This document shows positions 23,830 through 40,000 of a stretch of 40,000 nucleotides of DNA, piece by piece. The DNA comes from Candidatus Peregrinibacteria bacterium (lineage in GTDB: Bacteria > Patescibacteriota > Gracilibacteria > UBA1369 > LOWO2-01-FULL-3): the NCBI GenBank assembly GCA_018655275.1, contig JABIJZ010000002.1, positions 195,748-235,747 of the forward strand. Reading direction: 5' to 3'. Numbering within the stretch: position 1 is the stretch's first letter; every line of letters begins with the position of its first letter. The notes beneath the pieces were generated by a model, which saw only the letters and a list, made by a program, of their open reading frames with translations, had not been told where the DNA came from and made no database searches. A program made the position numbers and the translations under genes.

Positions 23830-24236
23830 AACAAGACTCCAAAGTATATTTCAGTCCTGAATCCTTGAGTTAAATCCTTAGGATCATTTGGAATTTTCTT
23901 TCTCCCAGGAGAAACCATTACCCTTCCGCCAGGAATATGTGAGGTCCCAGGCTTAATAGTCGACTCTCTAACAAGAGCTATCGTTTTACAAACATCTATA
24001 GCTGTTTCAGGATCATCAACCATAAGATCTTCCCCGCCTTCGTTAACAAATCTCCAATCATCAGCTTCAACATCAAAGTTAGTCCTAAGATTTGACGCCC
24101 AAGCAGCTCCATATCCCTTGTTAGGCCCCTTCCTTTCACGAGCACCCAAAGTATGTCGAAAACATTTCATAGCAGTACCCGCTTCAGCACCAAAAGCTTC
24201 ATCTAAAGACTCCGCTAATTCATTCAATCTAGCCAT
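23826..24236 (-). CDS. hypothetical protein (136 aa)
   Basis: ORF convergent on rpsI, with overlapping stop codons. A TTGATT-16-TATAAT promoter lies on the minus strand at about 24262-24289. Confidence 0.6.
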   Translation of the reverse strand: MARLNELAESLDEAFGAEAGTAMKCFRHTLGARERKGPNKGYGAAWASNLRTNFDVEADDWRFVNEGGEDLMVDDPETAIDVCKTIALVRESTIKPGTSHIPGGRVMVSPGRKKIPNDPKDLTQGFRTEIYFGVLF

Positions 24237-24329: not shown

Positions 24330-25262
24330 ATGAGTTTCATCAAAGACTTCCAAAAACTGTATTGGGCCTCTCCTGTTGTAAAAAACTGGACCAGGCAAAG
24401 CGAAAACTGCGAATACGGAGATATTTGTGTAGTCTCAAAAAACTGCTTCCTATGTTTCAACAGCTCAAACCTAGAAAACTGCTACTATTGTTATTCATCG
24501 CGCAAAAACTACGACTGCAACGGCCTAATGTTCTGCGAACACTGCACCATGTGCTACGAATGCATGGACTGTCACAGATGCAACAACTCCGACCACTGCC
24601 AAGACTGCGACAACTGCGCAAACTGCCAATATTGCTACGACTGCAAATCCTGTAACGACTGTTTTGGCTGCGCAAGCTTAATGCACAAAAAACACCACAT
24701 CTTCAACAAAAAACACTCAAAAGAAGAATATGAAGAACGCCTCAAAGAAATCCAAACCTGGCCCCAAGAAAAAATCGAAGAAGAATTTGAAAAAGTAAAA
24801 ATCTCAAAGCCACGATGCTACATGCACCAAACAAAATGCACAAACTGCATCGGAGACTACGTCGAACACAGCAAAAACTGCTACTGGATCTTTGACAGCC
24901 GCGACTGCGAAGACAGCTTCTACATCATGGAAGCCTGCCTAGAACACGGCTGCAAAGACTGCGCAGACTGCGGCCCCATCGCAAACAGCTTCGAACAATG
25001 CTACGACGTCTGCTTCGCAGGCTACCTCAACAACTGCCACCACATTTATTGGGCAGATTATATCTCAGATTGCGATTGGTGCACTAGCATTTGGGACTGC
25101 AGGAAGTGCTTTGGTTGTATTTACATGAAGAATAAAGAATACTGTATCTTAAATAAAAAATACTCAGAAAAAGAGTATGAGGAACTCACAAAAAAATACA
25201 AAAAGGAATTGTTAGACGCAGGTATTCAGGATCTCTACTCCTTAATCCATTACAAATGCTAG
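24330..25262 (+). CDS. cysteine-ladder protein, short form (about 310 aa)
   Basis: About 41 Cys by hand count, with runs of Cys every third residue and two modules each ending in the cap motif. I prefer the ATG at 24330 over the track's TTG at 24312. Confidence 0.8.
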   Translation: MSFIKDFQKLYWASPVVKNWTRQSENCEYGDICVVSKNCFLCFNSSNLENCYYCYSSRKNYDCNGLMFCEHCTMCYECMDCHRCNNSDHCQDCDNCANCQYCYDCKSCNDCFGCASLMHKKHHIFNKKHSKEEYEERLKEIQTWPQEKIEEEFEKVKISKPRCYMHQTKCTNCIGDYVEHSKNCYWIFDSRDCEDSFYIMEACLEHGCKDCADCGPIANSFEQCYDVCFAGYLNNCHHIYWADYISDCDWCTSIWDCRKCFGCIYMKNKEYCILNKKYSEKEYEELTKKYKKELLDAGIQDLYSLIHYKC

Positions 25263-25633
25263 CAAGACAAACAGCAGGAACACCAACTCACCTCAGGCCC
25301 GTTGAAGATAGTGGAGATGTTGAAAATACCGAAGCCGTTGAAAGCATTGAAGCCTTCATTACCGAATTGGTTGAAAAAGCAACAAATCACCTCGACAGAA
25401 CCCGTACAGACATAAAAGACTTAATTTCTAGAGTGATTCGTAAAGCAAGAAGTCGCTTACAAGAAAGCAGTGGAGACCGGGAAGCATTAGTGGACATGTT
25501 CCTAACTATAAAGACCGAAATTACTGCAATAGCAGGAGTGCCTAAGATCGCTGTAATGATGATTGCAGCTATCATATATACCAAAATCTTAGACATACAT
25601 AACGGGGCTGGAACAATCAAACCCACAAATTAA
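25256..25633 (+). CDS. hypothetical small protein with acidic N-terminus and a C-terminal hydrophobic helix
   Basis: 125 aa. Overlaps the upstream gene's end and ends 8 nt before the long Cys-rich gene. Hydrophobic segment AIAGVPKIAVMMIAAIIY. Confidence 0.55.
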   Translation: MLARQTAGTPTHLRPVEDSGDVENTEAVESIEAFITELVEKATNHLDRTRTDIKDLISRVIRKARSRLQESSGDREALVDMFLTIKTEITAIAGVPKIAVMMIAAIIYTKILDIHNGAGTIKPTN

Positions 25634-25641
25634 AGTAAATC

Positions 25642-27285
25642 ATGACAACCAATAATTGTAAAACCTGCTCAGCCAAATACGACATCACCCCTGAAGACGA
25701 GAAATTTTACGCAAAACTAGACCTTCCATCCCCCACTCTCTGCCCAATCTGCCGAAACAAACGCAGAATGGCTTGGCGCAACGACCGAAGCTTCTACATA
25801 CGAAAATCAGATAAATCAGATGAACAATTCATTTCAATATACCCAGAGAAAACTCCTTTCCCAGTATGGAAACCCGCAGAATGGTACGCAGAAGACTGGG
25901 ATCCCCGCGATTACGGCCAAGATTACGACTTCAACAAACCATTTTTCGAACAATGGAACGAACTCCTCCAAAAAGTCCCACGCCTAGGCATCGACATCGT
26001 TCACTGCGAGAATTCAGAATACTGCAACTACTGCGGAGACGACAAAAACTGCTACCTCGACATCGCCGGCGAAGCCAACGAAGATTGCTATTTCAATTTA
26101 TTCACAAAATACTCACGCGACTGCGCAGACAACACCTTTGTATACAAATCAGACCTCTGCTACGAATCTCTTCACTGCCACACCTGTCACAACGTCCGCT
26201 ACTCAATGCACATGGAAGGATGCGCAGACTGCGCATTCTGCTTTGACTGCAAAAGCTGCCAAAACTGCCTCTTCTCATACAACCTCCGCCACAAAAAATA
26301 CTACATTTTCAATGAAGAACACACAAAAGAAGAATACGAAAAGAAACTCAAAGAACTCAACCTCGGCTCATACAGCAACACACAAATAAGCCTCCAAATT
26401 TGGGAAGACAAAGTCATCAACAAAGCCATCCACCGCGACCAATACAACGTCCAAACCGAGGAATGCTCAGGCAACAACATCAAAAACTCAAAAAACTGCC
26501 GCGAAACATACAACGCAACAAACTGCTGGGACTCAAACTTCTTGTACGACGTCCTAGACACCAAAGATTGCTACGACCTCAACTATTCACTATACAAACC
26601 CGAAGTCGCCGCAGAGCTCATTTCTACACTCAACATGAGATACTCAGCCTGCAACATGGCCTCTCACTACTGCCACAACACATTCTACTGCGACATGGTC
26701 AACAACTCAGACTACTTATTCGGCTGCATCTCGATAAATCGCGGCCATTACTGCATCCTGAACAAACAATACACCGAAGAAGAATACAAAGAACTTTTCC
26801 CAAAAATCGTCACCCACATGCGCCAGACTGGAGAATGGGGCGAATTCTTCCCAGCCAAATACTCCCCTCCCGGATACAACGAAACCATCGCCCAAGAATA
26901 CTTCCCCTTAACCGAAGAACAAGCAAAAAAAGAAGGCTTCAATTGGAAACCAAAAGACAAAACCCCACCAAAGCCCCAGACATACAAAATTCCAAACAAC
27001 ATCAAAGACGTTCCAAAAGAAATCACAAAAGAAATCCTCGCCTGCGAAACCTGCGGCAAAAACTTCCGCCTCATCGAACAAGAACTCAAATTTTACCGCC
27101 GCCAAGAGATCCCAGTCCCCCATACTTGCCCAGACTGCCGCCACGAAGCCCGCCACCGCCTCCGCAACCCACGCATACTCAACCAACACAAATGCGGAAA
27201 ATGCTCAGCCCCAATCACAACCACCTACCACAAAGAACTCCCAAATATTTACTGTGAGAAGTGTTATTTGGAGAGTGTGTATTAG
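25642..27285 (+). CDS. cysteine-ladder protein, long form with N- and C-terminal Zn-ribbon caps (547 aa)
   Basis: N-terminus reads CKTC..FYAKLDLPSPTLCPICRNKRR. Two Cys-ladder modules follow. C-terminus reads CETC..FYRRQEIPVPHTCPDCRHEAR..CGKC..CEKC. Confidence 0.85.
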   Translation: MTTNNCKTCSAKYDITPEDEKFYAKLDLPSPTLCPICRNKRRMAWRNDRSFYIRKSDKSDEQFISIYPEKTPFPVWKPAEWYAEDWDPRDYGQDYDFNKPFFEQWNELLQKVPRLGIDIVHCENSEYCNYCGDDKNCYLDIAGEANEDCYFNLFTKYSRDCADNTFVYKSDLCYESLHCHTCHNVRYSMHMEGCADCAFCFDCKSCQNCLFSYNLRHKKYYIFNEEHTKEEYEKKLKELNLGSYSNTQISLQIWEDKVINKAIHRDQYNVQTEECSGNNIKNSKNCRETYNATNCWDSNFLYDVLDTKDCYDLNYSLYKPEVAAELISTLNMRYSACNMASHYCHNTFYCDMVNNSDYLFGCISINRGHYCILNKQYTEEEYKELFPKIVTHMRQTGEWGEFFPAKYSPPGYNETIAQEYFPLTEEQAKKEGFNWKPKDKTPPKPQTYKIPNNIKDVPKEITKEILACETCGKNFRLIEQELKFYRRQEIPVPHTCPDCRHEARHRLRNPRILNQHKCGKCSAPITTTYHKELPNIYCEKCYLESVY

Positions 27286-27911
27286 GTTCGATCAACATTC
27301 ATATTCCTGTAATCAATCTTCAGCTTGCCCCCCATATTCATAAACATCAGATAGTAAGACGTCCCGACAATCTTCATACCATAAAATGGTGACTCTCCCT
27401 TAAGAAAAGCCTCAAGACTCTCTCTACGAATAACTTTCTCATAAAAATTCTCAGGCAACATCGAATCATCATCAGTCTTAGTCAATTCACCATGCACAAC
27501 ATATTTAAAAACATTTTTTAAAACAGCTTCAGTCAACTCAACACTCTCAGCCTCTACAGCACGCCTCAAAGGTATATAATGTCGATTCAAAGCCGGATAC
27601 AGTCTCTTAAGTTTACTCCCTTCCTCAGCCACTCCCCTAACCATACCAGCAACTCTAATACTCTCAGGTGTAATTTCATCTTTTTGTTTTTGTTCACCAA
27701 TAGCCCATTCACCAAGCCCCACTCTTATATTCCTAACAACATTAACAACCCATTCAGGATCATTTGTCCTTCTACTACTGCCATCCCCAGAAACATATTT
27801 ATCATCCAAGCAACCAATAACAATCCTTGCCGCATCATCATGATATTGATCATCAGGTTTCTTCCCATCTGCCCCCACCGGAAACGCCCTTTCTTTTTGC
27901 CCTTCAGCCAT
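27282..27911 (-). CDS. hypothetical protein (209 aa)
   Basis: ORF 27282..28070, for which I prefer the ATG at 27911 (MAEGQKERAFPVGADG..). Its stop overlaps the convergent Cys-rich gene's stop. Confidence 0.6.
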   Translation of the reverse strand: MAEGQKERAFPVGADGKKPDDQYHDDAARIVIGCLDDKYVSGDGSSRRTNDPEWVVNVVRNIRVGLGEWAIGEQKQKDEITPESIRVAGMVRGVAEEGSKLKRLYPALNRHYIPLRRAVEAESVELTEAVLKNVFKYVVHGELTKTDDDSMLPENFYEKVIRRESLEAFLKGESPFYGMKIVGTSYYLMFMNMGGKLKIDYRNMNVDRT

Positions 27912-28000
27912 AATAAAGTGTTTAATTTTAGGGCTAATTAAATCACATACAAAAAGATAAAACAATGTGATTTTCAGAAGATTTGTTGTAAAATTGGCCC

Positions 28001-28936
28001 ATGAACGACCCAAAACAAATCGCCGAGAACTTCGTCCAACTCTACCGAGAATTAGTTCATCGCGAACCACACATTTCAGTCCACGTATGGCTATCCGACA
28101 ATTCCGACTATTGCGACCAAATCGACCGCTGCAAAAACTGCTATCTCGTTTTCAACAGTCTCCAATCCGAAGACTGCATGTATATGTACGACTCAAGATG
28201 GAGCAAAAACTGCAGCGACATATCTTACTGCAATCATTCAGAACTCTGCTACGACTCTCTCGATCTCGAAAAATGCTACAACTGCGACCACTGCCAAGAC
28301 TGCACAAACTCAAATGACTGCCAATACTCATACGATCTTCGAAACTGCAACAACTGCCTCGGATGCGCAGGCTTGAGACACAAAAACTACCACATTTTCA
28401 ACAAACCTTACTCAAAAAAAGAATACGAAGAGCTCACAAAAAAACTCCTTAAAAATCCAGGGAAAATCGAAAAACAGCTCGAAAAGCTTTGCCTCGAAAT
28501 CCCTCACGTCGCTCTCCACACCCAAAACACAGAAAACTGCTTCGGGAACTACGTAGTAAACTCCAAAAACTCATACTGCATCTTCAAAACACACAATCTC
28601 GAAGATTGCATGTATATGCACGACACCCAAAGAGAAAAAGATTGCATGGACTGTTTTGTAGGAAACGAATCAGAACTTGCTTACGGCTGCACCGAAAACT
28701 CCAAAATCTACAATTGTAATTTTTCATACTGGTGCGCCAACAACATCGATTGCGAATACATGATGTATAGCTTCAGCTGCAAGAACTGTTTCGGATGTTT
28801 CAACCTCAAACACAAAGAATATCGCATTCTCAACAAACAATACACGAAAGAAGAATACGAAAAACTCCTCCCAGAAATCAAAAAATCACTCCGAGAAAAA
28901 GGCCAATACATGAACTTCCTACCAGACGTAATGTAA
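28001..28936 (+). CDS. cysteine-ladder protein, short form (311 aa)
   Basis: Alignable with 24330..25262 and has the same two cap motifs (CLGCAGLRHKNYHIFNKPYSKKEYEEL and CFGCFNLKHKEYRILNKQYTKEEYEKL). Confidence 0.8.
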   Translation: MNDPKQIAENFVQLYRELVHREPHISVHVWLSDNSDYCDQIDRCKNCYLVFNSLQSEDCMYMYDSRWSKNCSDISYCNHSELCYDSLDLEKCYNCDHCQDCTNSNDCQYSYDLRNCNNCLGCAGLRHKNYHIFNKPYSKKEYEELTKKLLKNPGKIEKQLEKLCLEIPHVALHTQNTENCFGNYVVNSKNSYCIFKTHNLEDCMYMHDTQREKDCMDCFVGNESELAYGCTENSKIYNCNFSYWCANNIDCEYMMYSFSCKNCFGCFNLKHKEYRILNKQYTKEEYEKLLPEIKKSLREKGQYMNFLPDVM

Positions 28937-29647
28937 TTATTTCTCCCAATTTGGGTTTTCCGTCTCAACCCTCAACCTCCAAGCCCCCCAAGGAACATCT
29001 TCATAATCAACAAACGCCCAATCAACCCTCTCCATCCCGTCATGCCCCAAACATTCAGCCATTTTTGGCGAAAGATCCAAACCAGCCCCAAAATTCACAA
29101 GATTCTTAGGCTTTTTCGCACGTCCAAAAACGTAATCAAAATCATCTTCAACAAACGGCCCAACATCCTCTACTTGCCCATAACAAACATTCCTGTCCAA
29201 TCGAACAGCCACCCACCTGTTTTTCACAAAAGAATAATACGGGTTTGCAACAACCATCCTTTCATCATACCAAGGAATATCTGAGACATCATCCCTACCC
29301 AAATCATTGTAAGGAACTGCCACATAATAAGGATTGGAACTATCCGCATAAGGATACTCCCAAGCAGAAGGCACATTCGAAATTCCTCCGTTGTAATTCT
29401 CTTCATCAAAAGAAGCCTCTTCTCCAAACCAAAAAACAGTGCTCATAATATCTTTATGCAATTTGTAGGCAGGAGCTTTTTGCACCACACGTTTAACCAC
29501 ACTTCTCTCAACACTTTTCTCCACCCTCTCTACTCGCGAAGATCCACCCAAACGCACACGCGCCAAAGCTTCTCCTGGCACATACCCCCCAAACAAAGAG
29601 CCAGCTATCAGAACCAACACCAAATTAATTTTAAAAATCTTTTTCAT
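28937..29647 (-). CDS. secreted protein with a tentative RlpA/expansin-like double-psi beta-barrel domain
   Basis: I prefer the ATG at 29647, giving signal peptide MKKIFKINLVLVLIAGSLFGG. The C-terminal ..VAVRLDRNVCYGQVEDVGPF..GLDLSPKMAECLG.. resembles DPBB motifs. Confidence 0.55.
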   Translation of the reverse strand: MKKIFKINLVLVLIAGSLFGGYVPGEALARVRLGGSSRVERVEKSVERSVVKRVVQKAPAYKLHKDIMSTVFWFGEEASFDEENYNGGISNVPSAWEYPYADSSNPYYVAVPYNDLGRDDVSDIPWYDERMVVANPYYSFVKNRWVAVRLDRNVCYGQVEDVGPFVEDDFDYVFGRAKKPKNLVNFGAGLDLSPKMAECLGHDGMERVDWAFVDYEDVPWGAWRLRVETENPNWEK

Positions 29648-29723
29648 GCCAAGACATCCTAACCTATTGTTCGTTCTCTGGCTACAAAACCTCTCCCTCA
29701 CCTCCCCACTCCTACACAACAGG

Positions 29724-29752
29724 TTGACATTTTTCAACTTTTATACTACAAT
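29724..29752 (+). promoter_or_regulatory. promoter TTGACA-17-TACAAT
   Basis: Hexamers read directly, 21 nt upstream of the ATG at 29773. Confidence 0.5.
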
Positions 29753-29772
29753 CAGCTCTAATCTTTTTACAC

Positions 29773-32700
29773 ATGAGTAGTAAAGAAACAGGTAGATGGG
29801 AACCATCTCAAAGCCAAATGGTTACACGCGTATGGACCCCTGACGAAGTCGAGGAACAAACAGCCCCCGAGGGAGAAGCTTTGCGAACCCTGTCCACAAT
29901 TTACAGCAGGAGAATCAAAATAATGGCCGCAGAAAAAGACGCCTTGCCAGGAAAACCAAGAGCAAAAAGACTTCAACAACTCATCGGGAAAGTAAAACAT
30001 GACATAGCAACAAAAAGACGCGCAGGAGACTCTCACGAAAACAGAATCCAATACATAAAAGAATCCGCAGAGATCAAAGAAATCCAAAGACTATATCTCG
30101 AACTCGGAATAGCAGAAATGATAGTGCTCGGAGATTGGAGCGTTAGCAGGACCAGCGAAATCCCAGAAGCAATGGGGATAGATTCCGGACCACACGAAAC
30201 AGCCCCATTTGCAACACTGGAATCAGAGATTCTATACTTCTATGAAGAACATGGGGTAGTAGATGCATCAAAACTAGGAGACAAGCTAATTCACATGGAC
30301 ATAGGGTGCGGAAATGCAGTAGTAGGACAATCTCTAAGAACCGACAACCTCACAAGTCCATTTGGAAACAACCGAACTTTACCAGACTACTGGGGAGAAG
30401 TAGGGTTCGCAGATAGAATGTACTTCTCAATCAATGACCTCATCGCATCATTCATAAAAGAAGAGCACAGAGAAAACCCAGCCCTTCACGAATTCATCAA
30501 CACAGTAGCAACTCTCCTCACAAGAAGACTTTACTTCGGGAAAGACAAACTTGACCCAACATTAGCAAAACTCCCATCAGACCCAAATCAAATCGTAAAA
30601 ATCTTCAAAAAACTACATTTTTTCATAAAAAACTTCAGCACTCTATTGAACCCAGATAAAAAAACAATGGTAGACGTAGAATTTTTATCTGACGAAGCAA
30701 GCCAATTGACACCAGAATGCAGAGAGTTAGTAGAAGAATATTTCTACGGCCCAGAAATTAGAGAGAAAATTGAGAACAGCACTTCAGCAGTATGGATAGG
30801 AGACCACCAAAATCGAACAATCTTTGTAAATCGCAAATTTTGCGAGATGACAGGTAAAACCAAAGAAGAGCTGAAAGGCAAAACTAAAGAAGAACTAAAT
30901 CTATGGCGAGCCACAAAAGGAAACCTTGGTGACCCAAAAAGAGAAGGAACACTAAAACTCGCAACTGGCTTCAATGCAAATGTAAACTTGCACTCACCAA
31001 GACTAGGACCTAAGGCAGTAATTATAACCATGCCAGGCGAAACAGAAGAACAACACCTTTCGCAGACCCTAATAACAAGTCGCGAAAGATGGCAAACCAA
31101 AGTCGAAGAGTACGAGAAAACAGCCTCACAAGAATTCCTCGACAAATACTTCAAACCTGAATTCCACGGATCAACAAAAAAACTAGATGAACAAATCGCA
31201 AAATTAGATGAAAAACTTGCAGAAGCCGAAAGAATCCGAATAGAAATCCACGAAGCTGCAAAAGCCGCATACGCAACATTCACACAGCCTATAACCCCTG
31301 ATGCACAAAAGACGATAGAATCAGAGAGAACAGCAGTCAACCAAAGAAGAACAGCTTGGGAAGACACCAGACAACAACTAACAGACGAAAGACGTCACCT
31401 AATTGACCAAAGAGACCTCCTCAACCTAGCAAGCCACGTGACAATTCACCCCCACAACGTAATACTAGGAGACTTCGACGAATTTGGGGAAATAATACCA
31501 GATCAACCCCTTATAAACTTAGCCACATTATTCAGGTCTAGCTCCCACGCAACAGACACTCAATACACAAAACTGACAGAAACAACAGCCAAAAGACTCG
31601 CACCCGGAGGAATCATAGTATGCGACGGCAAAAAAGAGTCATACACAAGATTCGAACGACTGGAAGAACTCGAAGCACTACAAAAAAAACTCGGCACAAA
31701 CTACAAAATAAGCGCAATTGTAGATACACAAGGAGCAATAAGATCTATCTTGATAGAACGCATATTAGTAACTAAAGAAAATAAAAAAGCATTCTTTTCA
31801 GACGATCATAAAGAAGAAGCATTAATCCCAGACTGCTCACTCATACCAATATCAGACGTTCAAACCCATCTACCTAGACTAGCATTCAAAAACCGCATAA
31901 TAAAAGCTCTCAAAGAACTAATCATAGATCCAAGAGTCAAAGCAGCACCAGAAGACAAAAAAGGAGATACCCTATTCCAAAGCAGACTACTTTTCAAAGG
32001 TATACACGAAATAATAGACGCAGTTGTAGAAAAAACTGAAAACCTCGACGAAGCAATCCTCCAAATAGCCCAACAATCAGACCTAGTTCGCCAACAACTA
32101 GACGCATCAAAACAAGGAACATCACTAATGCATCCGGACTTTAGAATCACAACATACCCTAGAAAAACCAAAACACTTTCGGAACCAACCAACGAAACAC
32201 GATCCTTCAGAGCCCAATCACTTCCAAGAAATCTAGACATACCAAACTTAAACCACCCAGCCATCGAATACCATAAGAGAATAGCAATAAATTGCTTACT
32301 AAAACTGAGACTATTCACAGGCAAATCACCAATAAAAGTAATTGAATTCGAAGGGTGCTTCACAAACACTCCAATGATAACAACATTACGAAACCTACTC
32401 GGACAAAACTTCGAAGACCTTGTAGAAATAGAAACCGTATCTCCTAACAACCCTGCTCCAAACATTGACGACAACACCATATATATCATCGGAGGCAGTA
32501 TAAAATCAGTCAACGACCCAGAAGGCAAACAATTCACACAAAATTTTTCACAAAAGCTACTAGAAAGAATCCAGGAAGGTGCCAACATACGAGCATACGC
32601 AACATGCTATGGATCAGAAAGTATATTAGAAGCCTTTGGAAACATGAGAGATAACCTAACAGTAGAAACAACACCGGGAGCCCTACAATTTGGAGCATTT

Positions 32701-33231
32701 CCAATAGAATTCACTCAAGACACCACCCCCTCAACAGAGCATCTAGCCGGCAAACAAGCAACAGTCACATTCACAAGAGGAGAATACTCAGAAGTAGAAG
32801 GCTATGAAGATGTCGACGACATGCAACCACTCGCATTCGAATGCAAAGAAGATGAACAAGGAGAACTAGTCACAGACCCATCCCGACCAATAAGCTTTTC
32901 ATTGCTAGACGGAGCAGTAATCACAGCCCAACCTCACTTCGAAGTTAACCTAAAAAGAGAACAAGACCTCGAAACCCTCCGCAGACACCTACAAAGATCG
33001 GCAAGAGAAACAACATCAGAATTTAGTCCAACACAAACAACCACAAACGAAAAAGAACGACACAAGTTCACAACAAACCCATCACACATCTACACTCACC
33101 AAGTAGATATCCCAGCTGTAAACGCCCAAGGTACAAAAACTCAATGGCTTGAAAACGACGTAGGAGCAGCATTATTTGCGCCAATACTAGCAACACACGC
33201 AAAAAAAACCTTAAACCAGCTAGCAACCTAA
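29773..33231 (+). CDS. 1152-aa multidomain protein: interrupted SAM-methyltransferase-like region, PAS-like region, coiled coil, and C-terminal class I glutamine-amidotransferase-like region
   Basis: Motifs: HMDIGCGNAVVG (aa ~174), AVWIGDHQNRTIFVNRKFCEMTG (aa ~339), a heptad-like Glu/Lys/Ala-rich stretch (aa ~430-550), LGDFDEF..AKRLAPGGIIVCDG (aa ~565-619), and IYIIGGS..AYATCYGSESILEAFG..AQPHFEV (aa ~903-1057). Confidence 0.8.
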   Translation: MSSKETGRWEPSQSQMVTRVWTPDEVEEQTAPEGEALRTLSTIYSRRIKIMAAEKDALPGKPRAKRLQQLIGKVKHDIATKRRAGDSHENRIQYIKESAEIKEIQRLYLELGIAEMIVLGDWSVSRTSEIPEAMGIDSGPHETAPFATLESEILYFYEEHGVVDASKLGDKLIHMDIGCGNAVVGQSLRTDNLTSPFGNNRTLPDYWGEVGFADRMYFSINDLIASFIKEEHRENPALHEFINTVATLLTRRLYFGKDKLDPTLAKLPSDPNQIVKIFKKLHFFIKNFSTLLNPDKKTMVDVEFLSDEASQLTPECRELVEEYFYGPEIREKIENSTSAVWIGDHQNRTIFVNRKFCEMTGKTKEELKGKTKEELNLWRATKGNLGDPKREGTLKLATGFNANVNLHSPRLGPKAVIITMPGETEEQHLSQTLITSRERWQTKVEEYEKTASQEFLDKYFKPEFHGSTKKLDEQIAKLDEKLAEAERIRIEIHEAAKAAYATFTQPITPDAQKTIESERTAVNQRRTAWEDTRQQLTDERRHLIDQRDLLNLASHVTIHPHNVILGDFDEFGEIIPDQPLINLATLFRSSSHATDTQYTKLTETTAKRLAPGGIIVCDGKKESYTRFERLEELEALQKKLGTNYKISAIVDTQGAIRSILIERILVTKENKKAFFSDDHKEEALIPDCSLIPISDVQTHLPRLAFKNRIIKALKELIIDPRVKAAPEDKKGDTLFQSRLLFKGIHEIIDAVVEKTENLDEAILQIAQQSDLVRQQLDASKQGTSLMHPDFRITTYPRKTKTLSEPTNETRSFRAQSLPRNLDIPNLNHPAIEYHKRIAINCLLKLRLFTGKSPIKVIEFEGCFTNTPMITTLRNLLGQNFEDLVEIETVSPNNPAPNIDDNTIYIIGGSIKSVNDPEGKQFTQNFSQKLLERIQEGANIRAYATCYGSESILEAFGNMRDNLTVETTPGALQFGAFPIEFTQDTTPSTEHLAGKQATVTFTRGEYSEVEGYEDVDDMQPLAFECKEDEQGELVTDPSRPISFSLLDGAVITAQPHFEVNLKREQDLETLRRHLQRSARETTSEFSPTQTTTNEKERHKFTTNPSHIYTHQVDIPAVNAQGTKTQWLENDVGAALFAPILATHAKKTLNQLAT

Positions 33232-34484
33232 ACCATCGCCGCAAGCGACAACTCTATAAGCTTCGCATATTTTTCAATAAATTCATTCTCAAAAATCTCC
33301 AACTTCTTTTCAGGACTAGTATATAGAGACAAAGTTCCAACCAATTTAGACTTGAAAACCAAAGGAATCAAAAGCAAAGAACAGAGATTGTTTTTATTAG
33401 CCAAAAACTTCGACTGATACTTTGGATCCTTCATAACATCAATGATTTTCACAGACCCCTTCTGAACAAAAGCCTTCTCAGCCAAGCCCCCTTTGTATTT
33501 AATACTAGCTTTGCCTTCCCAATCATTTGCCAAACCAAAAGAAGAAAGAAGATCCAACGAATCTCGTTTTTGATTATATAAGCGCAAAACGCACGCATCC
33601 ACTCTCGTCAGCATAATTATAGAACTAACAACGAAATCAGCCATACTCTTCAAATCTCCAGAGCTCCTACAAACATCCAAAAGCTCAAACACATAATCCA
33701 TCTGCCTACGGATCACACCAAATTTATTATAAGCCTCTTTCATTTTCCTATACTTCAACTCCACATCCTCTTCAAACTTAACCTGATTCGTAATATCCCT
33801 AGCAATAATCAGATAAAACGAAACCTTCTTCTTACCTTCAATAAAGATAGGCGTCAATGTCGCAGCAACCAAAATCTTTTTCTTATTTTTGTGCTTCCCC
33901 TCAAGTTCAATATTGTAAATAACTTTAGAACTACTAATAATTTCCCCAACATCCCCTCGAGAGAAAATCCTGCTTATTTTCGCACCAACCATTTCCACCC
34001 CCTTGTATCCAAAAATTATTTTAGCCCCTTTATTCCAAGACTTCACCTTCCCATCCGGATCAAAAGTAATAACTGCATTCGTTGAATATTGAATAGCTTG
34101 ACTGAGAACTTTTTCTTCCTCCTCCTTTTTTTTCAAGTCAGTGAGGTCAGTCATTATACCAATAGTCCCACCATCCGGAAGAGGCGCCCCACTCAAAAGA
34201 ACAGGCACAATCTTCCCATTCTTCGTCAACAAATCCCCTTCATAACTAGAACTAACCCCTTTTTTACGCTCAGAAGTATTCACATTTCTCACTCTCTTAA
34301 CACTTTCCTCAGTCCAAAAATCATAAGACTCCCTCCCTATCATATCCGGCAACTTATAACCAACCATCTTACAAAACTTCGGATTAGCATAAACAGTCCT
34401 TTCATTTTTATCACCAACCCAAACACCTTCATTCATCGTATCAATCAAAGTTTTATAAATCTTACTGTCTGCCAATTTTTTCAT
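33228..34484 (-). CDS. PAS-PAS-GAF sensor protein without a recognisable output domain
   Basis: 418 aa from the ATG at 34484 (the track ORF extends to 34517). Contains two PAS-like blocks (..GVWVGDKNERTVYANPKFCKMVG.. and ..NAVITFDPDGKVKSWNKGAKIIFGY..) and a C-terminal GAF-like region. Confidence 0.8.
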   Translation of the reverse strand: MKKLADSKIYKTLIDTMNEGVWVGDKNERTVYANPKFCKMVGYKLPDMIGRESYDFWTEESVKRVRNVNTSERKKGVSSSYEGDLLTKNGKIVPVLLSGAPLPDGGTIGIMTDLTDLKKKEEEEKVLSQAIQYSTNAVITFDPDGKVKSWNKGAKIIFGYKGVEMVGAKISRIFSRGDVGEIISSSKVIYNIELEGKHKNKKKILVAATLTPIFIEGKKKVSFYLIIARDITNQVKFEEDVELKYRKMKEAYNKFGVIRRQMDYVFELLDVCRSSGDLKSMADFVVSSIIMLTRVDACVLRLYNQKRDSLDLLSSFGLANDWEGKASIKYKGGLAEKAFVQKGSVKIIDVMKDPKYQSKFLANKNNLCSLLLIPLVFKSKLVGTLSLYTSPEKKLEIFENEFIEKYAKLIELSLAAMV

Positions 34485-35610
34485 ATATTTTTTTACGAGT
34501 ATGTTTACTATGAACATGATCCAACCACTCTCTCTTCACACAATCTTTCTCAGATTTTTTGATCTCAACACAATCTCCACTCATCAACCTATAATATATA
34601 TCCTGCTTCCCCCCATTTACAATAGCTGATCGAGCTTTGTGCCCCAAATCAGAATGCAAATGATAAGCAAAATCAACAATAGTAGAACCATTTTCCAATT
34701 TGAACAAATCTCCTTTTGGAGTAAAAACATACACATCCTTCAACTCTTCATCCCCTTGCGAAAGATCCGAGAAATGTTCAACCAATTTCTTTTCCTTTTC
34801 CGTAACCATCTTCGACTTTTTCCCCTTTGCATACAACCAATGAGCAGCAAATCCCTTTTCCGCAAAATCATCCATCGCCCTCGTCCGAATCTGTACCTCA
34901 ATAGGAATATCCAACTTTTCAACAACTTCAATCAATCCAGTATGCAAACTCTGATACCCATTGATCTTCGGAATAGTCACATAATCCTTGAAATAATCCA
35001 CAACCGGATAAAACCGATCATGAAACAAATTCAAAACCTCAAAACACTCATCCACCGAATTCGACTCTAGAACAATCCTGAACGCAAAAATATCATTCAA
35101 TTTAATAGCACTTTTCTTCATTTTTTTTCGAAGTTTTTTGTTGATACTATAAAGATTCTTGTATCGTCCCTTCACCTCACACTCATACCCCTCCTCCTTC
35201 AAAAACACCCGAAAAACTCTCAAAACTTTATTCACAAGACTTTTAGAATTATTTTTATAAACCTTCATCATCTCATCAACATCCTTATACCTTTCATCAT
35301 CAGTAATTTTGAAACAAAGATCATCTAGCAAACTTTTTTCATTAAAAAACCCAAATCTCTCGCATAACTGCGAAAGAACCAACAAATATCTATTCGCCAT
35401 TTTTTTCTCCAATTTCTGATCTTCACACAAACCCAACTGAGTCCTGAAAACTTTGACGAATTCATAAAACACCTCTGGAGATTTAGAAAAACTAGAGAAA
35501 AAATACTGAGAAATCGACTCCAGATTTTTCGCAGACTCATTAACATTCACCAACAACCCGAGCCATCGCTCAAATTCTTCTTTACCTAAATGGATTTTCT
35601 TTAAAACCAT
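34462..35610 (-). CDS. RelA/SpoT-homolog (p)ppGpp synthetase with TGS domain, lacking the catalytic half of the HD hydrolase domain
   Basis: 382 aa. Synthetase motifs GRYKNLYSINKKL, DIFAFRIVL, PKINGYQSLHT, EVQIRTRAMDDFAEKGFAAHWLY. TGS motif VYVFTPKGDLFKLENGSTIVDFAYHLHSDLGHK. The N-terminal ~140 aa has no HD dyad. Confidence 0.85.
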   Translation of the reverse strand: MVLKKIHLGKEEFERWLGLLVNVNESAKNLESISQYFFSSFSKSPEVFYEFVKVFRTQLGLCEDQKLEKKMANRYLLVLSQLCERFGFFNEKSLLDDLCFKITDDERYKDVDEMMKVYKNNSKSLVNKVLRVFRVFLKEEGYECEVKGRYKNLYSINKKLRKKMKKSAIKLNDIFAFRIVLESNSVDECFEVLNLFHDRFYPVVDYFKDYVTIPKINGYQSLHTGLIEVVEKLDIPIEVQIRTRAMDDFAEKGFAAHWLYAKGKKSKMVTEKEKKLVEHFSDLSQGDEELKDVYVFTPKGDLFKLENGSTIVDFAYHLHSDLGHKARSAIVNGGKQDIYYRLMSGDCVEIKKSEKDCVKREWLDHVHSKHTRKKIYEKIGRQ

Positions 35611-35656
35611 CGCAAAACAATTCTAACACATGCCAGCCCATACACAAAAAACCACT

Positions 35657-37270
35657 CTACCACACCTCCCCCAAATAACATTCCTGACAATAGACCTTCC
35701 TGTCAAAATCTTCAGCAAACGTCGTCTGCACAACCTCCCCACACTTCGAACATTTCCGATCAAACAACTTACGCGGCCCCATTTTCTCCCACAACTTATC
35801 AATCCGCACAGCCGGCGCAAGCACCGGCAACGGCAAACCATATTTCTTATAAAACTTCACCTCCGCATCAAGATATTTGAACTTTTTCCCACTCTCAGGA
35901 CAAACAAAAATCTCCTCGTCCACCTCTTCAGCCAAACCACCCTTCTCCCCCGAAACCACCTCTTTCTCATCCATCCATTTCCAACCCTTTTTCAAAACCT
36001 CAGCCTTCTCCAAAGGATAAAACCGCTGAGCCATAGTGAAATTATAAGGATGCGGTGAATATTCAACCGGGAAAAACTCGCCATATTCACCAGTCCCCCG
36101 CATATGCTCAACAATCCGCTCCTTCAACGCAAAATACTCCTCCTCCGAATACTGTTTATTCAAAATACAAAACTGCTTGTGCTTCAACCCAGCACACCCA
36201 AACAAATTCCGACAACTCCTCAATTCAATACAATAATAAATATCCGTAGAAAACCACGGCAACTGCGAAAACTGCTGATTGTAAGCCTTCGGCCCCGCAT
36301 GCAAACACTCATACATCAGCTCCCCCTCATAGATATTCGTATCATAGCAATCCTTGGAATGATGAATGTCCGTGCAATATCGACAATCTTTGCAATTATC
36401 CACCCAATAACAATCCTTCACATTTTTGCAATTCGACAAATAATCCCCCGAGCTCTCCTCAACATTTATCAAAACTCCCGAAGGATAAACTTGGTCCTTC
36501 ATAAACTCATCAAATCGCTCCCGAGCTCCCTCCAAATCTTCCCGACGACCAGTAAAAATCTCTGCCCAAGCTTTTTCAAACTCCTCCTTCCCCACCGATT
36601 TATTAAAAATACAATATTCCTTATTTCTCAAATTCGCACAAAACAAACACTTCCGGCACCCCTTACAATTCATCAAAAACGCCGAATCATTACAATGAAA
36701 AACATTCTGCGAACAAAAAACCGAATAGCACTTCTCCGCCTTCCGCAAATCATACCCAATCTCCGAATCCCGCACAAAAATACACTCAACCATGTTCTTG
36801 CAATACTGAATATTATACCCGTAATAACAATCCCACGAGCCATCCATCTCATCCGTAAAATAACAATTTTTGTTGCGATGCGCACAGATAATATATTCAC
36901 TATTCGTATTCAAAACCGAATTCGAAATATGCCTCGGCACCTCCCTCGCCATCTCAAAAAACTGCTCAAAAAACGGCCGGTCAAAATCAAAATCCCGCCC
37001 ATACTCCATCGCATCAAACTCCTCAGACTCAAAACAATCATTGCAGTAAGCCTTGAGCCCCTCAATGTCCGGCGAAAACCACGACATCGTCGTCCGCTCG
37101 CATTTATCACACGCCCTCATAAAAAAATCCTTCCCCCGCCAAGCCCATCTCCGTCTCTCACGCTCCGCAGGACACAAAGTCGGCAACGGCGCCTCAATCT
37201 TGCGATAAAACTCCTGATCCCCATCAGTAATCTCAAATTTCTCTCCCGAAACTGCACAAATCTTTTCCAT
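35657..37270 (-). CDS. cysteine-ladder protein, long form (537 aa) with eroded Zn-ribbon ligands
   Basis: Collinear with 25642..27285, including the FFEQ linker, both cap motifs and GEYGEFFPVEYSP. The first ribbon at each end has lost Cys residues (CAVSG, CPAER, CPESG, LAPAVR). Confidence 0.85.
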   Translation of the reverse strand: MEKICAVSGEKFEITDGDQEFYRKIEAPLPTLCPAERERRRWAWRGKDFFMRACDKCERTTMSWFSPDIEGLKAYCNDCFESEEFDAMEYGRDFDFDRPFFEQFFEMAREVPRHISNSVLNTNSEYIICAHRNKNCYFTDEMDGSWDCYYGYNIQYCKNMVECIFVRDSEIGYDLRKAEKCYSVFCSQNVFHCNDSAFLMNCKGCRKCLFCANLRNKEYCIFNKSVGKEEFEKAWAEIFTGRREDLEGARERFDEFMKDQVYPSGVLINVEESSGDYLSNCKNVKDCYWVDNCKDCRYCTDIHHSKDCYDTNIYEGELMYECLHAGPKAYNQQFSQLPWFSTDIYYCIELRSCRNLFGCAGLKHKQFCILNKQYSEEEYFALKERIVEHMRGTGEYGEFFPVEYSPHPYNFTMAQRFYPLEKAEVLKKGWKWMDEKEVVSGEKGGLAEEVDEEIFVCPESGKKFKYLDAEVKFYKKYGLPLPVLAPAVRIDKLWEKMGPRKLFDRKCSKCGEVVQTTFAEDFDRKVYCQECYLGEVW

Positions 37271-37302
37271 ATTTAAAAAGATACTATAAAAACATCAAAT
37301 AA

Positions 37303-37554
37303 TCACCTCAGCTTCTTATACACCTGATTACGAAAACCAACCGCAACTAAATCATTAACATTTTTACCCAACCTACTTTTTCTAAACACAACCCTGTATT
37401 TTTTCCTTCGTATCCGGTACAAATCTCTAAACCCCTTCAACTTTTTCACTTCCTCATCACTCAAATCACCAGCCAAGACCTTTTTCATCGCAGCCAGAAG
37501 CATCAAATAATCTCTCTTCGAGATTTTCCGAATTAATCTTTCATATCTATCCAT
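37303..37554 (-). CDS. RelE/ParE-like type II toxin
   Basis: 83 aa with LKGFRDLYRIRRKKYRVVFRK..LVAVGFRNQVY. Overlaps the upstream antitoxin gene by 8 nt. Confidence 0.55.
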   Translation of the reverse strand: MDRYERLIRKISKRDYLMLLAAMKKVLAGDLSDEEVKKLKGFRDLYRIRRKKYRVVFRKSRLGKNVNDLVAVGFRNQVYKKLR

Positions 37555-37789
37555 GTATTTTTTTTGCCGCAGCTTTAAATTTTTCTATATCCAAACCCTT
37601 ATCACAATAAATCCCAAACCCATTATCATCCTCATAATAAACCACCCCATCTCCTTCATCCGAGATAGGTTTTATCAACAAGCCCATATCAGTCTCCTCC
37701 GCAACAAACTTCGAAGTATCAAACTTCTCCCTCCATTTCTTTGGTAATGTGACTTGCCCAGTATTAAACATATTCAATGTGTAGATCAT
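37547..37789 (-). CDS. AbrB/MazE (SpoVT-AbrB)-type antitoxin
   Basis: 80 aa. The N-terminal NTGQVTLPKKWREKF is typical of the swapped-hairpin AbrB fold. Confidence 0.55.
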   Translation of the reverse strand: MIYTLNMFNTGQVTLPKKWREKFDTSKFVAEETDMGLLIKPISDEGDGVVYYEDDNGFGIYCDKGLDIEKFKAAAKKIHG

Positions 37790-37973
37790 AGCAAAAATTA
37801 GTTAATTTAATTAATTTCACCAATATTGTACACAAGTTAGATTAAAAAAACAACCCCACCCTACCACCCCATCCTTAAATAAATCTTTCAAAAATCTTAA
37901 ATTTTTCTTAATTTTTCTTTAATTTTCCCGTAGAATACAAAACCAGAAACAAAACACCCCCTAACTCCACATA

Positions 37974-39293
37974 ATGACCCCAGCCCAAGACTTTTTCGCC
38001 CCATACAAACCAGTAGCACCAAACGCAATCCAGGTTGCTCAAAACAATTTTGTAGCAGACCCACGCCCAACAGACCCAGCCCTTCCATCAGGACAGAGAA
38101 AACATTCTTTAGCCCAAGGCTTCCTTCTCAATAATAAACAACGGGACAACCAAGACCCAGGCCAATTATTCGAAATGCAATCTGTCACAGAAGCAAAAAG
38201 ACTTTTCTTCGAAGAAGACTTACAAAACCCAGATCTCGACCGATACCTGAGTCCAAAAGACCCCACCCTTCTCAAACTCGAGCCACTCGTGCAAAAGACA
38301 CTCTTCGGAAAACAAAACCCAAGAATCATGACCGCACCCCTACCAGGAATGGCCCCTTCATTCACAACAATATTCACACTCCTTCAACAAGAACACCCTG
38401 AACTCGACACAATAGTCCTAGGCACAAACGGATACGGAGGATACTTAAGCGTACTTCAAAGCTCATTCAAAAACGTAGTCAAATACACCCACTCAACCGA
38501 AGACAACAAATTCAACCTTGAAGAATTCACCAAAACAATCGAAGCCCTACCCAATCCAAGTCAAACAGTCCTACTCCTGCAAGCCGACGCATACAACTAC
38601 ACAGGGGTAAACCCAACATCAGAACAAAAGAAACAAATCATAGAAATCCTCAAAAAACACAAAGTCCTCACCCTAATAGACAACGCATACCAAGGCCTCA
38701 CAAAAGGACTTGGCGAAGACGTAGAGATAGTAAGACTACTAGCAGAAACCGATCTACCCTTCATCGTATACGATTCATATTCAAAAAAATCCCAACTATA
38801 CGGATGGAGAGTCGCTTTCGCACACTTTGTCACAGGAAGTCCAGACCAAGCAAAAACACTTAGAAATAACCTTTACTCTCTCATCAGAAACCGCTTCCTC
38901 GCAATTCCACCAATGTTCAAAGTCATCTATCACTTGCTAAGCAACCCCGAACTTCACAAACAATGGACAGAACAAGACGTCCCAGCTGCACGCGAAATTC
39001 TCACAAACAGCAAAAAACTAATGGCCCAAGAACTCGGTGAAGGATTTGAATATATCCACCCAGACAACACCCAAGGAATGTTCAACAAATTCAACATTTC
39101 CCATAAAGGAGGACAAGAACTCGCCGAAAAATTCCACATCTACGCAGTAAACGCAAAAGACGAAGGCCGCCTCGACGCCCAAGGACAACCCAAAGAATCC
39201 CTCCGCGTCAACATGGGCTCAATCCCCGAACAAGACATCCCATACATTGCAGCCGCATTGAAGGAAATTTATTCTCAACACCAAACCTCATGA
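37974..39293 (+). CDS. class I (AspC-like) PLP-dependent aminotransferase, divergent
   Basis: 439 aa. YNYTGVNPTSEQ, IDNAYQGL, SYSKKSQLYGWRVA and SLRVNMGS align with E. coli AspC HNPTG, FDFAYQGF, SYSKNFGLYNERVG and SGRVNVAG. Confidence 0.78.
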   Translation: MTPAQDFFAPYKPVAPNAIQVAQNNFVADPRPTDPALPSGQRKHSLAQGFLLNNKQRDNQDPGQLFEMQSVTEAKRLFFEEDLQNPDLDRYLSPKDPTLLKLEPLVQKTLFGKQNPRIMTAPLPGMAPSFTTIFTLLQQEHPELDTIVLGTNGYGGYLSVLQSSFKNVVKYTHSTEDNKFNLEEFTKTIEALPNPSQTVLLLQADAYNYTGVNPTSEQKKQIIEILKKHKVLTLIDNAYQGLTKGLGEDVEIVRLLAETDLPFIVYDSYSKKSQLYGWRVAFAHFVTGSPDQAKTLRNNLYSLIRNRFLAIPPMFKVIYHLLSNPELHKQWTEQDVPAAREILTNSKKLMAQELGEGFEYIHPDNTQGMFNKFNISHKGGQELAEKFHIYAVNAKDEGRLDAQGQPKESLRVNMGSIPEQDIPYIAAALKEIYSQHQTS

Positions 39294-39562
39294 CAACCTC
39301 TCAACAACTCGAAAAAGAAATCAAAAGAATCAAAGCCCGAAACAAACGAGTTGAACTCGACAAAGCCTGGGAAACAAGCTGGACCAGAAGAATCCTAACT
39401 CTAACCCTCACGTACTTAATCATATTAGTATTCTTCCTAGTAGCAAAACTCGAAGACCCATACGTAAACGCAACAATCCCAGCTCTCGCATTCGTCACAG
39501 GAACATCATCAATCCCACACTTCAAAAAATTCTGGACCAGATACATCAACAAAAAACGATGA
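39290..39562 (+). CDS. small membrane protein (90 aa, 1-2 TM helices)
   Basis: Hydrophobic ILTLTLTYLIILVFFLVA. ATGA overlaps with both neighbouring genes. Confidence 0.55.
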   Translation: MTTSQQLEKEIKRIKARNKRVELDKAWETSWTRRILTLTLTYLIILVFFLVAKLEDPYVNATIPALAFVTGTSSIPHFKKFWTRYINKKR

Positions 39563-40000
39563 CAACAAAAACCTGCAAATCTTGCAACAAACCCTTCGAA
39601 ATCACCCCAGAGGACGAAAGATTTTACAAACTTTTTGATGTGCCATCCTCAAACTCATGCCCCGACTGCCGACTCCAACGCCGATTAATGGAACGAAACA
39701 CCAAAAACTTATACTGGCGCAAATGCGACCTAACCGGAGAAAAAATCCTTTCACAATTTCACCCCGACCATCCATTCCCAGTCTACAAAACAGAAGACTG
39801 GTGGTCCGACAAATGGAACGCCCTCGACTACGGCGTAGACTTCAACTTCAACCGTCCATTCTTTGAACAATTCAAAGAGCTCCGCGACCGCATCCCCCAC
39901 TTCGCAATGTACGTAATCCACGGCACCCAAGAAAATTCCGAATACACCAACTGCACCGGCTATCTCAAAAACTGCTACATGATTTTCGAAAGCGACTACG
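39559..40000 (+). CDS. cysteine-ladder protein, long form, 3' end cut by the window edge
   Basis: Hand-translated and absent from the ORF track because no stop falls in the window: MTTKTCKSCNKPFEITPEDERFYKLFDVPSSNSCPDCRLQRR..YGVDFNFNRPFFEQFKEL..NSEYTNCTGYLKNCY. Collinear with the N-termini of 25642 and 37270. Confidence 0.8.
   Translation, partial: MTTKTCKSCNKPFEITPEDERFYKLFDVPSSNSCPDCRLQRRLMERNTKNLYWRKCDLTGEKILSQFHPDHPFPVYKTEDWWSDKWNALDYGVDFNFNRPFFEQFKELRDRIPHFAMYVIHGTQENSEYTNCTGYLKNCYMIFESDY

Follow-up and report, generated by a model that had tools for sequence, protein, structure and literature searches.

Cysteine-ladder proteins clustered in a Peregrinibacteria contig belong to a large Patescibacteria family whose genes recur beside a VirD4-like ATPase

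Two kinds of described systems come close to the proteins considered here, one by its fold and one by its gene arrangement. The antifreeze protein of the beetle Tenebrio molitor (TmAFP) is a helix with 12 residues per coil, in which residues 2, 5, 8 and 11 point inwards, disulfides hold the coils and a TxT face is displayed. In the virB/virD4 system of Bartonella, the bep effector genes are arrayed next to virD4. Among the bacteria of the Candidate Phyla Radiation (CPR, Patescibacteria), 5,713 VirD4-like genes have been counted in 2,918 genomes; only 148 of them lie near virB4, and exaptation was raised as a possibility (PMC12102498). Here we analyzed five cysteine-rich proteins, A to E, encoded within a 40,000-nt stretch of Candidatus Peregrinibacteria DNA (contig JABIJZ010000002.1, positions 195,748 to 235,747; this whole stretch is called the window). 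We propose, at a probability of about one half, that these proteins are ancient CPR paralogues which share a duplicated 12-residue Cys/Ser-ladder solenoid and work with a VirD4-like ATPase.

The initial annotation had placed five mutually alignable open reading frames (ORFs) directly behind the ribosomal operon. The ORF list and BLASTP confirmed all five, the cluster follows rplM-rpsI, and every pair among the five proteins gave a significant alignment (A-C, 40% identity, E-value 9e-70; B-D, 33%, 7e-102; A-B, 27%, 1e-32; B-E, 45%, 4e-42). The five genes are:

24330..25262, + strand: member A, short form, two predicted solenoid modules only (ORF; 310 aa, 41 Cys)
25642..27285, + strand: member B, long form, best-conserved paralogue (ORF; 547 aa, 36 Cys)
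28001..28936, + strand: member C, short form (ORF; 311 aa, 28 Cys)
35657..37270, − strand: member D, long form with degenerate first and middle fingers (ORF; 537 aa, 35 Cys)
39559..40000 (window end), + strand: member E, 5′ part, 147 of 441 aa in the window (ORF)

The start of A was set at the ATG at 24330 and not at the upstream TTG at 24312, because a 100%-identical database protein (HOE67_02290, Candidatus Peregrinibacteria) is 310 aa long. In NCBI's copy of the contig (GCA_018650345.1, Candidatus Peregrinibacteria), protein E has its full length of 441 aa. The 41 Cys of A, which agree with the first hand count of about 41 (~13%), make up 13.2% of the protein and reach a density of 12 Cys within 34 residues; the string CQDCDNCANCQYCYDCKSCNDCFGC is found in A. 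We observed 21 Cys-Cys pairs at distance 3, compared to 5.2±2.0 expected from 2000 shuffles, while no pairs occur at distances 1 and 2 and a single pair at both distance 4 and distance 5 (chance expectation 5.2-5.3 for each distance). The Cys at every third residue noted before is hence a real feature of A, and the same spacing pattern was obtained for B, C, D and E in the shuffle comparison. As had been stated earlier, neither a signal peptide nor a transmembrane (TM) helix is present in the family proteins (maximum 19-residue Kyte-Doolittle mean ≤0.68). Long alternative-frame or antisense ORFs lie inside B and D (26400-27257, + strand, 285 aa; 36104-37276, + strand, 390 aa); their translations are of low complexity and rich in R, P, L and I, which suggests composition artefacts and not genes.

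The central part of the proteins, which we refer to as the core, consists of two related halves. Aligned with each other by HHalign, the halves give a probability of 100% and an E-value of 7.6e-52, therefore the core is a tandem duplication of a module of ~140 aa. Each module comprises ~7.5 repeats, or coils, of 12 residues with the consensus [DN]-C-[YF]-x-C-x-[DNG]-[C/L]-x-[NG]-[C/S]-[EK] and ends with CFGC-x-G-L-x-x-K-x-Y-C-I-L-N-K-Q-Y-S-K-E-E-Y, followed by a helix. The [ND]-C-[YF] rungs described in the initial annotation are present in this consensus, but the spacing of 6-15 aa given for them was wrong, as they follow a strict 12-residue repeat. In A and B the modules were located as follows:

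24390..24719, + strand: module 1 of A (aa 21-130), ~7.5 coils, ending in CFGC-x-x-L-x-x-K-x-H-x-IFNK (HHalign, period-3 Cys, DSSP lag 12)
24825..25163, + strand: module 2 of A (aa 166-278) (HHalign, period-3 Cys, DSSP lag 12)
25999..26325, + strand: predicted solenoid module 1 of B (aa 120-228) (12-residue register directly readable; beta bridges)
26428..26775, + strand: predicted solenoid module 2 of B (aa 263-378), Cys-poor, 9 Cys (register readable in the sequence)

For the analysis of the Cys positions we used an alignment of 1,057 module instances out of 619 family proteins. All Cys-rich columns were found on a strict 3-residue grid between columns 24 and 114, with the strongest columns recurring every 12. 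The positions on this grid, the ladder, are composed of 41% C, 19% S and ~33% L, V, G, A, I and T taken together, and charged and aromatic residues make up less than 3%. Off-ladder positions contain only 0.5% Cys and are mostly occupied by Y, D, N, E, F and K. A single module may have as few as 3 or as many as 24 Cys. None of the ladder Cys is invariant: the best-conserved ones reach 78-86%, with L or S in their place otherwise, and over the ladder as a whole S, L, V, A, I and T act as substitutes, whereas H and D do not. Regarding the presence of Cys, we observed that the co-variation peaks at a separation of 12 (mean phi 0.155; e.g. ladder columns 72-84-96-108) and is about zero or negative at a separation of 6 (mean phi −0.035). 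Within a coil, the a-c and b-d correlations are negative for the most part, and sets of four Cys occur in most coils at roughly the frequency expected for independence.

The same period was seen in predicted structures. The AlphaFold2 model of A, calculated from a 60-sequence alignment, has a mean predicted local distance difference test score (pLDDT) of 74.8 and is almost all beta, and its DSSP strand autocorrelation peaks at lag 12 (0.46 for module 1 and 0.41 for module 2). For B the model reached a pLDDT of 82.7 and a predicted template modeling score (pTM) of 0.85, with ~90 in the finger and helical parts, and isolated beta bridges were found every 12 residues (150, 162, 174, 186, 197, 209 and 221).

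In view of the stacking at i/i+12, and with neither i/i+6 coupling nor four-Cys sets, we infer that the Cys serve the packing of a solenoid core and form neither metal sites nor disulfides. With moderate confidence, which derives from periodicity, co-variation and the two AlphaFold models of A and B, the module can be described as a narrow four-sided parallel beta-solenoid packed by reduced Cys/Ser ladders. The 12 residues of a coil would fold into four 3-residue sides with Asx/Gly turns at the corners, which would place four Cys/Ser ladders in the interior, where the Cys would be reduced and buried. Since module 2 of B has just 9 Cys, such a fold would not need a high Cys density. The initial annotation had left the choice between metal binding (Zn or Fe-S) and a Cys-laddered beta-solenoid, in either case without disulfides. 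The period of 3 and 12 and the i/i+12 signal favor the solenoid, and the free replacement of the Cys speaks against metal in the core.

Several observations nevertheless weigh against the packing model. The coil at columns 75-84 carries four Cys at a frequency of 0.16 compared to 0.054 under independence, and there may be a local metal or disulfide site at this position. The co-variation statistics allow for phylogeny by position-based weights alone. Furthermore, the solenoid modules of B have a pLDDT of just 63-77, so that handedness, cross-section and thiol geometry are predicted only, and no structure superimposes in Foldseek searches (PDB for both models, BFVD for A), the TM-scores being ~0.1-0.25. 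The four-Cys excess is also one of the arguments for the view that the whole Cys-dense core is a metal device, i.e. a stack of Cys4 Zn or Fe sites, a carrier of Fe-S clusters or a metallothionein-like store or sensor. This view can further draw on the very high local Cys density (12 Cys per 34 residues in A), on CxxCxxC strings which resemble CXXC-type Zn fingers (a match to the MLL CXXC domain at E-value 0.17 is not significant), and on the four inward Cys per coil, which could in principle chelate an ion. We consider it quite improbable, because a ladder Cys is never invariant (78-86% at best) and gives way to S, L, V, A, I or T and not to H or D, because modules with 3-7 Cys exist besides the 9 Cys of B module 2, and because ligand sets do not co-occur, the i/i+6 correlation being negative. 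In addition, no ferredoxin or metallothionein profile in Pfam or NCBIfam was matched.

Comparing the predicted solenoid with described folds, we found the closest likeness in the insect antifreeze beta-helix (Tenebrio molitor/Dendroides; PDB 1EZG; PF02420, repeat TCTxSxxCxxAx), with which it shares the 12-residue coil, small inward residues at every third position and a very narrow solenoid. However, the family consensus scores only 12.6 bits against PF02420 (cut-off 36.5; E-value 0.19), the match to 1ezg has an E-value of 5.1, and the window proteins show no PF02420 match. In PDB and Pfam, these matches and that to the MLL CXXC domain are the only echoes of the core sequence, and none of them is significant. 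The coil consensus lacks a TxT ice-binding face, and as there is no i/i+6 Cys co-variation, there is no evidence for cross-coil disulfides of the TmAFP type (repeat positions 2-8). Moreover, the family is bacterial, has no signal peptide, and combines two modules with a CFGC...ILNKQYSKEEY cap and with Zn-finger fusions. One could still regard the proteins as disulfide-stabilized, TmAFP-like extracellular rods, ice-binding proteins or adhesins, that leave the cell by an unrecognized route. The coil length with its period-3 inward small residues and the weak antifreeze matches just given (1ezg, PF02420) would fit, and Cys-rich extracellular proteins have been described from Peribacteria (PMC4736985). 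We attach a very small probability to this explanation: signal peptides and TM segments are missing, neither an i/i+6 Cys pairing nor a TxT face was observed, and Zn fingers are typical of the cytoplasm. The proteins of PMC4736985 were considered as members of the family and rejected, as they form a different set of large (~1,655 aa), secreted proteins with signal peptides.

Pentapeptide-repeat proteins (Qnr, MfpA), left-handed hexapeptide-repeat proteins (LpxA, GlmU) and pectate-lyase-like right-handed beta-helices resemble the modules in the parallel stacking of short repeats, in internal ladders and in the rod shape. The weak Foldseek matches, all with E-values ≥0.014, are nearly all beta-helix proteins and include these types. 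In contrast to them, the repeat of the family has a length of 12 (4 × 3) and not of 5, 6, 18 or 22-25 residues, its ladder consists of Cys/Ser and not of Leu/Phe, Ile/Val or Asn, and the TM-score is ~0.1; no Pfam Hexapep or Pentapeptide match was obtained for the family proteins. A closer sequence relation leads to phages. A search of the core against PHROGs gave a single match, phrog_15341, the function of which is undescribed. This group includes gp032 of Campylobacter phage CP220 (locus L081, 2399-2770), a protein of 123 aa encoded between the portal and DNA ligase genes, which consists of nearly pure [DN]-C-x triplets and ends in CDDCFGC. Mini-proteins of the gp032 type (BFVD label 'Caib/baif family protein') are uncharacterized and have 10 unnamed relatives in the homology search. 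They share the period-3 [DN]-C-x string and its CDDCFGC end with the family (A against phrog_15341, E-value 1.4e-8; A against the phage ORF, E-value 1e-4), but measure 100-160 aa, contain a single module and lack both the ILNKQYSKEEY cap and Zn fingers. By sequence, gp032 can be classified as a minimal one-module relative of the ladder family.

The earlier statement that the proteins can be assigned to no characterized family was borne out for the core, which has no match in Pfam, NCBIfam, PADLOC or PDB sequences by profile and sequence searches and no convincing one in Foldseek. At the ends of the long forms, zinc fingers match Pfam zf_Tbcl and zf_Tbcl_2. In the short architecture (A and C) the core stands alone, without fingers. 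The long architecture (B and D) consists of an N-terminal treble-clef finger, a linker, the core, a helical region and two C-terminal fingers. Protein E is intermediate, with an N-terminal finger, the core and a GEYGEYFP region but without the C-terminal fingers; its orthologues elsewhere have ~550 aa. In B the additional parts are:

25642..25791, + strand: N-terminal treble-clef-like zinc finger (aa 1-50; C6, C9, C34, C37) with an RRMAWRNDR basic patch (pLDDT ~90; ligand conservation)
26776..27021, + strand: conserved helical region (aa 379-460), motif GEWGEFFP...SP(P/F)GYNET.AQEYFPLT.E.A (pLDDT 86-96)
27022..27285, + strand: two C-terminal treble-clef zinc fingers (aa 461-547) and stop codon (Pfam zf_Tbcl PF13451)

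The helical region of B (aa 379-460), whose invariant residues include M393, G400, N413 and W435, has no Pfam match. Residues 466-506 of B match zf_Tbcl (PF13451) with 25.6 bits (gathering cut-off 24) and residues 500-532 of D match zf_Tbcl_2 (PF23477) with 29.6 bits (gathering cut-off 27). The N-terminal region of protein E gives a weak zf_Tbcl match only (E-value 0.019), and D reaches 29 bits against TIGR04272 (CxxC-x17-CxxC), which is under the cut-off of 36. These three families are themselves without an assigned function. The terminal fingers of B and D resemble them in that they pass the Pfam cut-offs and keep the ligand Cys, but the matches cover less than 20% of the long forms and nothing of the short forms. 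Among 59 aligned long-form sequences, the last finger is best kept, with Cys at the positions of C518, C521, C538 and C541 of B in 54-59 of them. The four ligands of the N-terminal finger are Cys in 44-50 of the 59 homologues, and for the middle finger the count falls to ~33-37 at three ligand positions, C468 being kept in 58. In D the last finger is intact, while only two of the four ligands of the N-terminal finger and one of the four of the middle finger remain. As this ligand loss and the absence of C-terminal fingers from protein E show, the finger head has decayed stepwise within one genome. Zinc sites are probably confined to the terminal treble-clef fingers of the long forms, as judged from ligand conservation. 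The Arg-rich C-terminal fingers, the N-terminal finger and the helical domain most likely form a zinc-stabilized head that would bind nucleic acid or a partner protein.

Next, we regarded the size and distribution of the family. An exhaustive profile search found 4,203 clusters at 50% identity (E-value ≤1e-3), 1,548 of them at E-value ≤1e-30, and both architectures are represented. For B more than 6,350 homologues were obtained; among the top 120, the identity is 51-88% and the usual length ~550 aa (range 486-614). The source names in the databases are 'hypothetical', 'zinc-ribbon domain containing' and 'CxxC-x17-CxxC', and only a single domain fusion, with GNAT, was seen among the homologues. 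Among the GTDB species representatives, 586 or more loci could be confirmed, and almost all carry the label of Peribacteria/Peregrinibacteria, Gracilibacteria, Abawacabacteria, Paceibacterota or another CPR group. The family is thus very large, unnamed and almost confined to CPR (Patescibacteria), and this survey of phyletic spread, copy number and neighborhood shows that it is abundant in related genomes and not specific to the window. In the literature on cysteine-rich proteins of Peregrinibacteria and Patescibacteria we found no description of the Cys-ladder family or of its linkage to an ATPase. A viral origin was also considered and rejected, with one marginal IMG/VR match and no match for B in phage genomes.

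The genomic context was analyzed in 79 related GTDB loci, taking ±6 kb about a family member. Two or more copies within this distance were observed in 38 of the loci, some of which contain up to ~6 in tandem, and family members account for 233 of the 731 ORFs (32%). The best identity of a copy averages 44% within its locus and 55% between genomes, and in 90% of the cases the better match is the one between genomes. This makes the copies of a locus ancient paralogues that have differentiated, and not recent variable duplicates, and the sequence comparison indicates that the arrays are under purifying selection. Toxin-antitoxin, ORF6N/Rha and nucleotidyltransferase genes are interspersed in the arrays of the related loci.

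In these genomes we recognized a conserved layout, in which a divergent gene for a TrmB-like helix-turn-helix protein is followed by 1-5 family genes and a gene for a ~747-aa VirD4/TrwB-like P-loop ATPase; a short-form family gene often stands directly after the ATPase. Examples of the order TrmB, array, ATPase are loci L028, L040, L089, L105 and L139. In 34 of the 79 family-seeded loci, this fixed layout was represented by either the TrmB-like or the VirD4-like gene or by both together. When the search was reversed and started from the ATPase in metagenomes, family genes were found in 51 of 80 loci, and a family gene was the first large ORF upstream of the ATPase in 31 of 61 loci. On a contig of 1.37 Mb with independent gene calls, a TrmB gene on the minus strand precedes four co-directional ORFs of 550-606 aa without a Pfam match, one of which is the queried homologue of B, and orthologues of B at 54-58% identity lie within such arrays. 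The ATPase itself is highly conserved (65% mean column identity). It passes the cut-offs of TrwB_AAD_bind (PF10412, 40.8 against 20.5) and T4SS-DNA_transf (PF02534, 34.7 against 20.1), and matches phrog_5156 over its full length as well as the mad8 and HerA models of PADLOC. A predicted TM anchor is missing, the hydropathy of 19-residue windows nowhere exceeding 1.6 in the 15 full-length copies. For the family proteins A, B and D, no PADLOC (anti-phage defense) match was obtained.

On this basis the family would act together with a soluble VirD4/TrwB-like ATPase under the control of a divergent TrmB-like regulator, a mechanism read from the neighborhoods in other genomes. Most likely, the family proteins would serve as rigid, specificity-diversified adaptors or clients that are bound or translocated by the ATPase; we hold this role with low confidence, as it is derived from guilt by association. 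Counting against the ATPase link, 29 of the 80 ATPase loci have no family gene within 8 kb, and both the ATPase and the TrmB-like gene are absent from the window, so that for A to E the functional link runs through family membership only.

The arrangement can be compared with the bep arrays of Bartonella, in that tandem paralogues adjoin a VirD4/TrwB-family ATPase. It differs in having no BID domain and no relaxase, in the ATPase without TM anchor and, for the window, in the lack of the ATPase. The ATPase also resembles the orphan VirD4-like type IV coupling proteins (T4CPs) of Patescibacteria, most of which lie at a distance from virB4 and could be products of exaptation (PMC12102498). These likenesses raise the alternative that the family proteins are exported cargo, i.e. 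effectors which the VirD4-like ATPase passes to Patescibacteria's type IV secretion system (T4SS) and which are injected into or displayed to the host. In favor of such a role, tandem arrays stand directly upstream and downstream of the ATPase gene; a gene for a T4SS pilin was seen at a distance of ~8 kb from one array, and the T4SS is essential for epibiotic growth of a cultured relative (PMC12102498). By inference only, the Arg-rich C-termini of the long forms resemble positively charged type IV secretion signals, but the short forms and protein E lack this C-terminal region. We judge the export of effectors to be unlikely, though not as improbable as metal binding by the core. The ATPase has no predicted TM anchor, only 148 of the 5,713 ATPase genes are near virB4 and t4cp is not essential in Ca. 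Southlakia (PMC12102498). Among the clustered neighbors of the 79 loci no other T4SS component was recognized. The paralogues are ancient, with ~55% identity across species, unlike typical fast-evolving effectors, and a tightly folded solenoid that carries Zn fingers would be ill suited as an unfolding substrate.

Regarding the adaptors or clients of a soluble ATPase, the conserved gene-cluster context is new in that it is undescribed, while the class of the solenoid fold and the Zn fingers are of kinds already known. If the predicted fold is true, the tight 12-residue beta-helix of insect antifreeze proteins, the case known so far, would have been put to use independently a second time, with reduced Cys/Ser ladders in place of disulfides. 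CPR genomes measure about 1 Mb, yet related loci spend up to six tandem 1.6-kb genes on the family. Being abundant, conserved and limited to episymbiotic bacteria, it is probably of biological importance to them. The linkage to the ATPase, being reciprocal, also provides a testable lead on the role of the T4CP homologues of Patescibacteria, a question raised in the literature. A more far-reaching version, which we offer as a doubtful speculation, is that Cys-ladder rods are what the thousands of orphan, anchor-less VirD4-like ATPases have been lacking as partners, and that with these and the TrmB-like regulator they constitute a CPR-specific ATP-driven system. Its panel of ancient, rigid and specificity-diversified Zn-finger adaptors, or else cargo proteins, would receive nucleic acid as a load or reach the host by delivery. 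The system would be a core element of episymbiosis not recognized before, and the rods would represent a new cytoplasmic, disulfide-free fold, a beta-solenoid with a Cys ladder and 12 residues per coil.

In the window, the neighbors of the family genes comprise genes for a RelA/SpoT-TGS protein, a PAS/GAF protein, a ParE/MazE-like pair and an aminotransferase. D ends 46 bp upstream of the RelA/SpoT-TGS gene in the same direction, and the ORFs for PAS/GAF (33228-34517) and Rel (34462-35610) overlap by 56 nt as listed. The operon of one copy with Rel and a PAS/GAF sensor that had been proposed at first is therefore true locally, but it is not a conserved trait: these neighbors do not recur beside family genes in the 79 related loci (Rel and PAS/GAF in 0 of 79), and the block 29773-37270, which encodes a 1152-aa protein with a weak PAS match only, PAS/GAF, Rel and D, does not occur at the corresponding syntenic site of sibling genome L165. 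By this comparison the block looks like a variable insertion. The order rplM-rpsI-A-B-C, on the other hand, is kept in two sibling genomes (B 88% and 85% identical), and an orthologue of C with 75% identity is syntenic in L165.

These neighbors could be taken to mean that the proteins are nucleic-acid-binding factors of translation or of the stringent response, unrelated to the ATPase. Besides the position of A, B and C after rplM-rpsI here and in the two siblings, and of D 46 bp before a co-directional RelA/SpoT-TGS gene, basic patches on the treble-clef fingers would agree with such a function. It appears improbable to us, since rpsI is nearby in just one of the 79 related loci and Rel and PAS/GAF in none, since one sibling lacks the D-Rel-PAS/GAF block at the syntenic site, and since the short forms carry no finger. 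The adaptor or client role beside the ATPase, with its recurrence across genomes, remains the explanation we prefer.

The initial annotation had further assigned a different small orphan or membrane partner to each copy. The small ORFs that flank the family genes are:

23826-24236: 136 aa, no Pfam match
25256-25633: 125 aa, no Pfam match
27282-28070: 262 aa, no Pfam match
28937-29737: 266 aa, no Pfam match
39290-39562: 90 aa, no Pfam match

This part of the annotation could not be upheld, as the ORFs have no homologue in the 79 related loci or in the two sibling genomes, even though B is 85-88% identical in the latter. Either these are orphan genes, or the ORFs are no genes at all. The 40-kb window contains neither tRNA genes nor Rfam matches, and promoters and terminators are not in excess. 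The ParE-like toxin and MazE(AbrB)-like antitoxin pair (37303-37789, − strand) is located between D and the aminotransferase gene and is conserved in L165. The base composition of the window is strongly biased between the strands, with an AT skew that amounts to +0.2 to +0.4 over genes on the plus strand and drops to ~0.04-0.1 across the minus-strand block at 34-38 kb.

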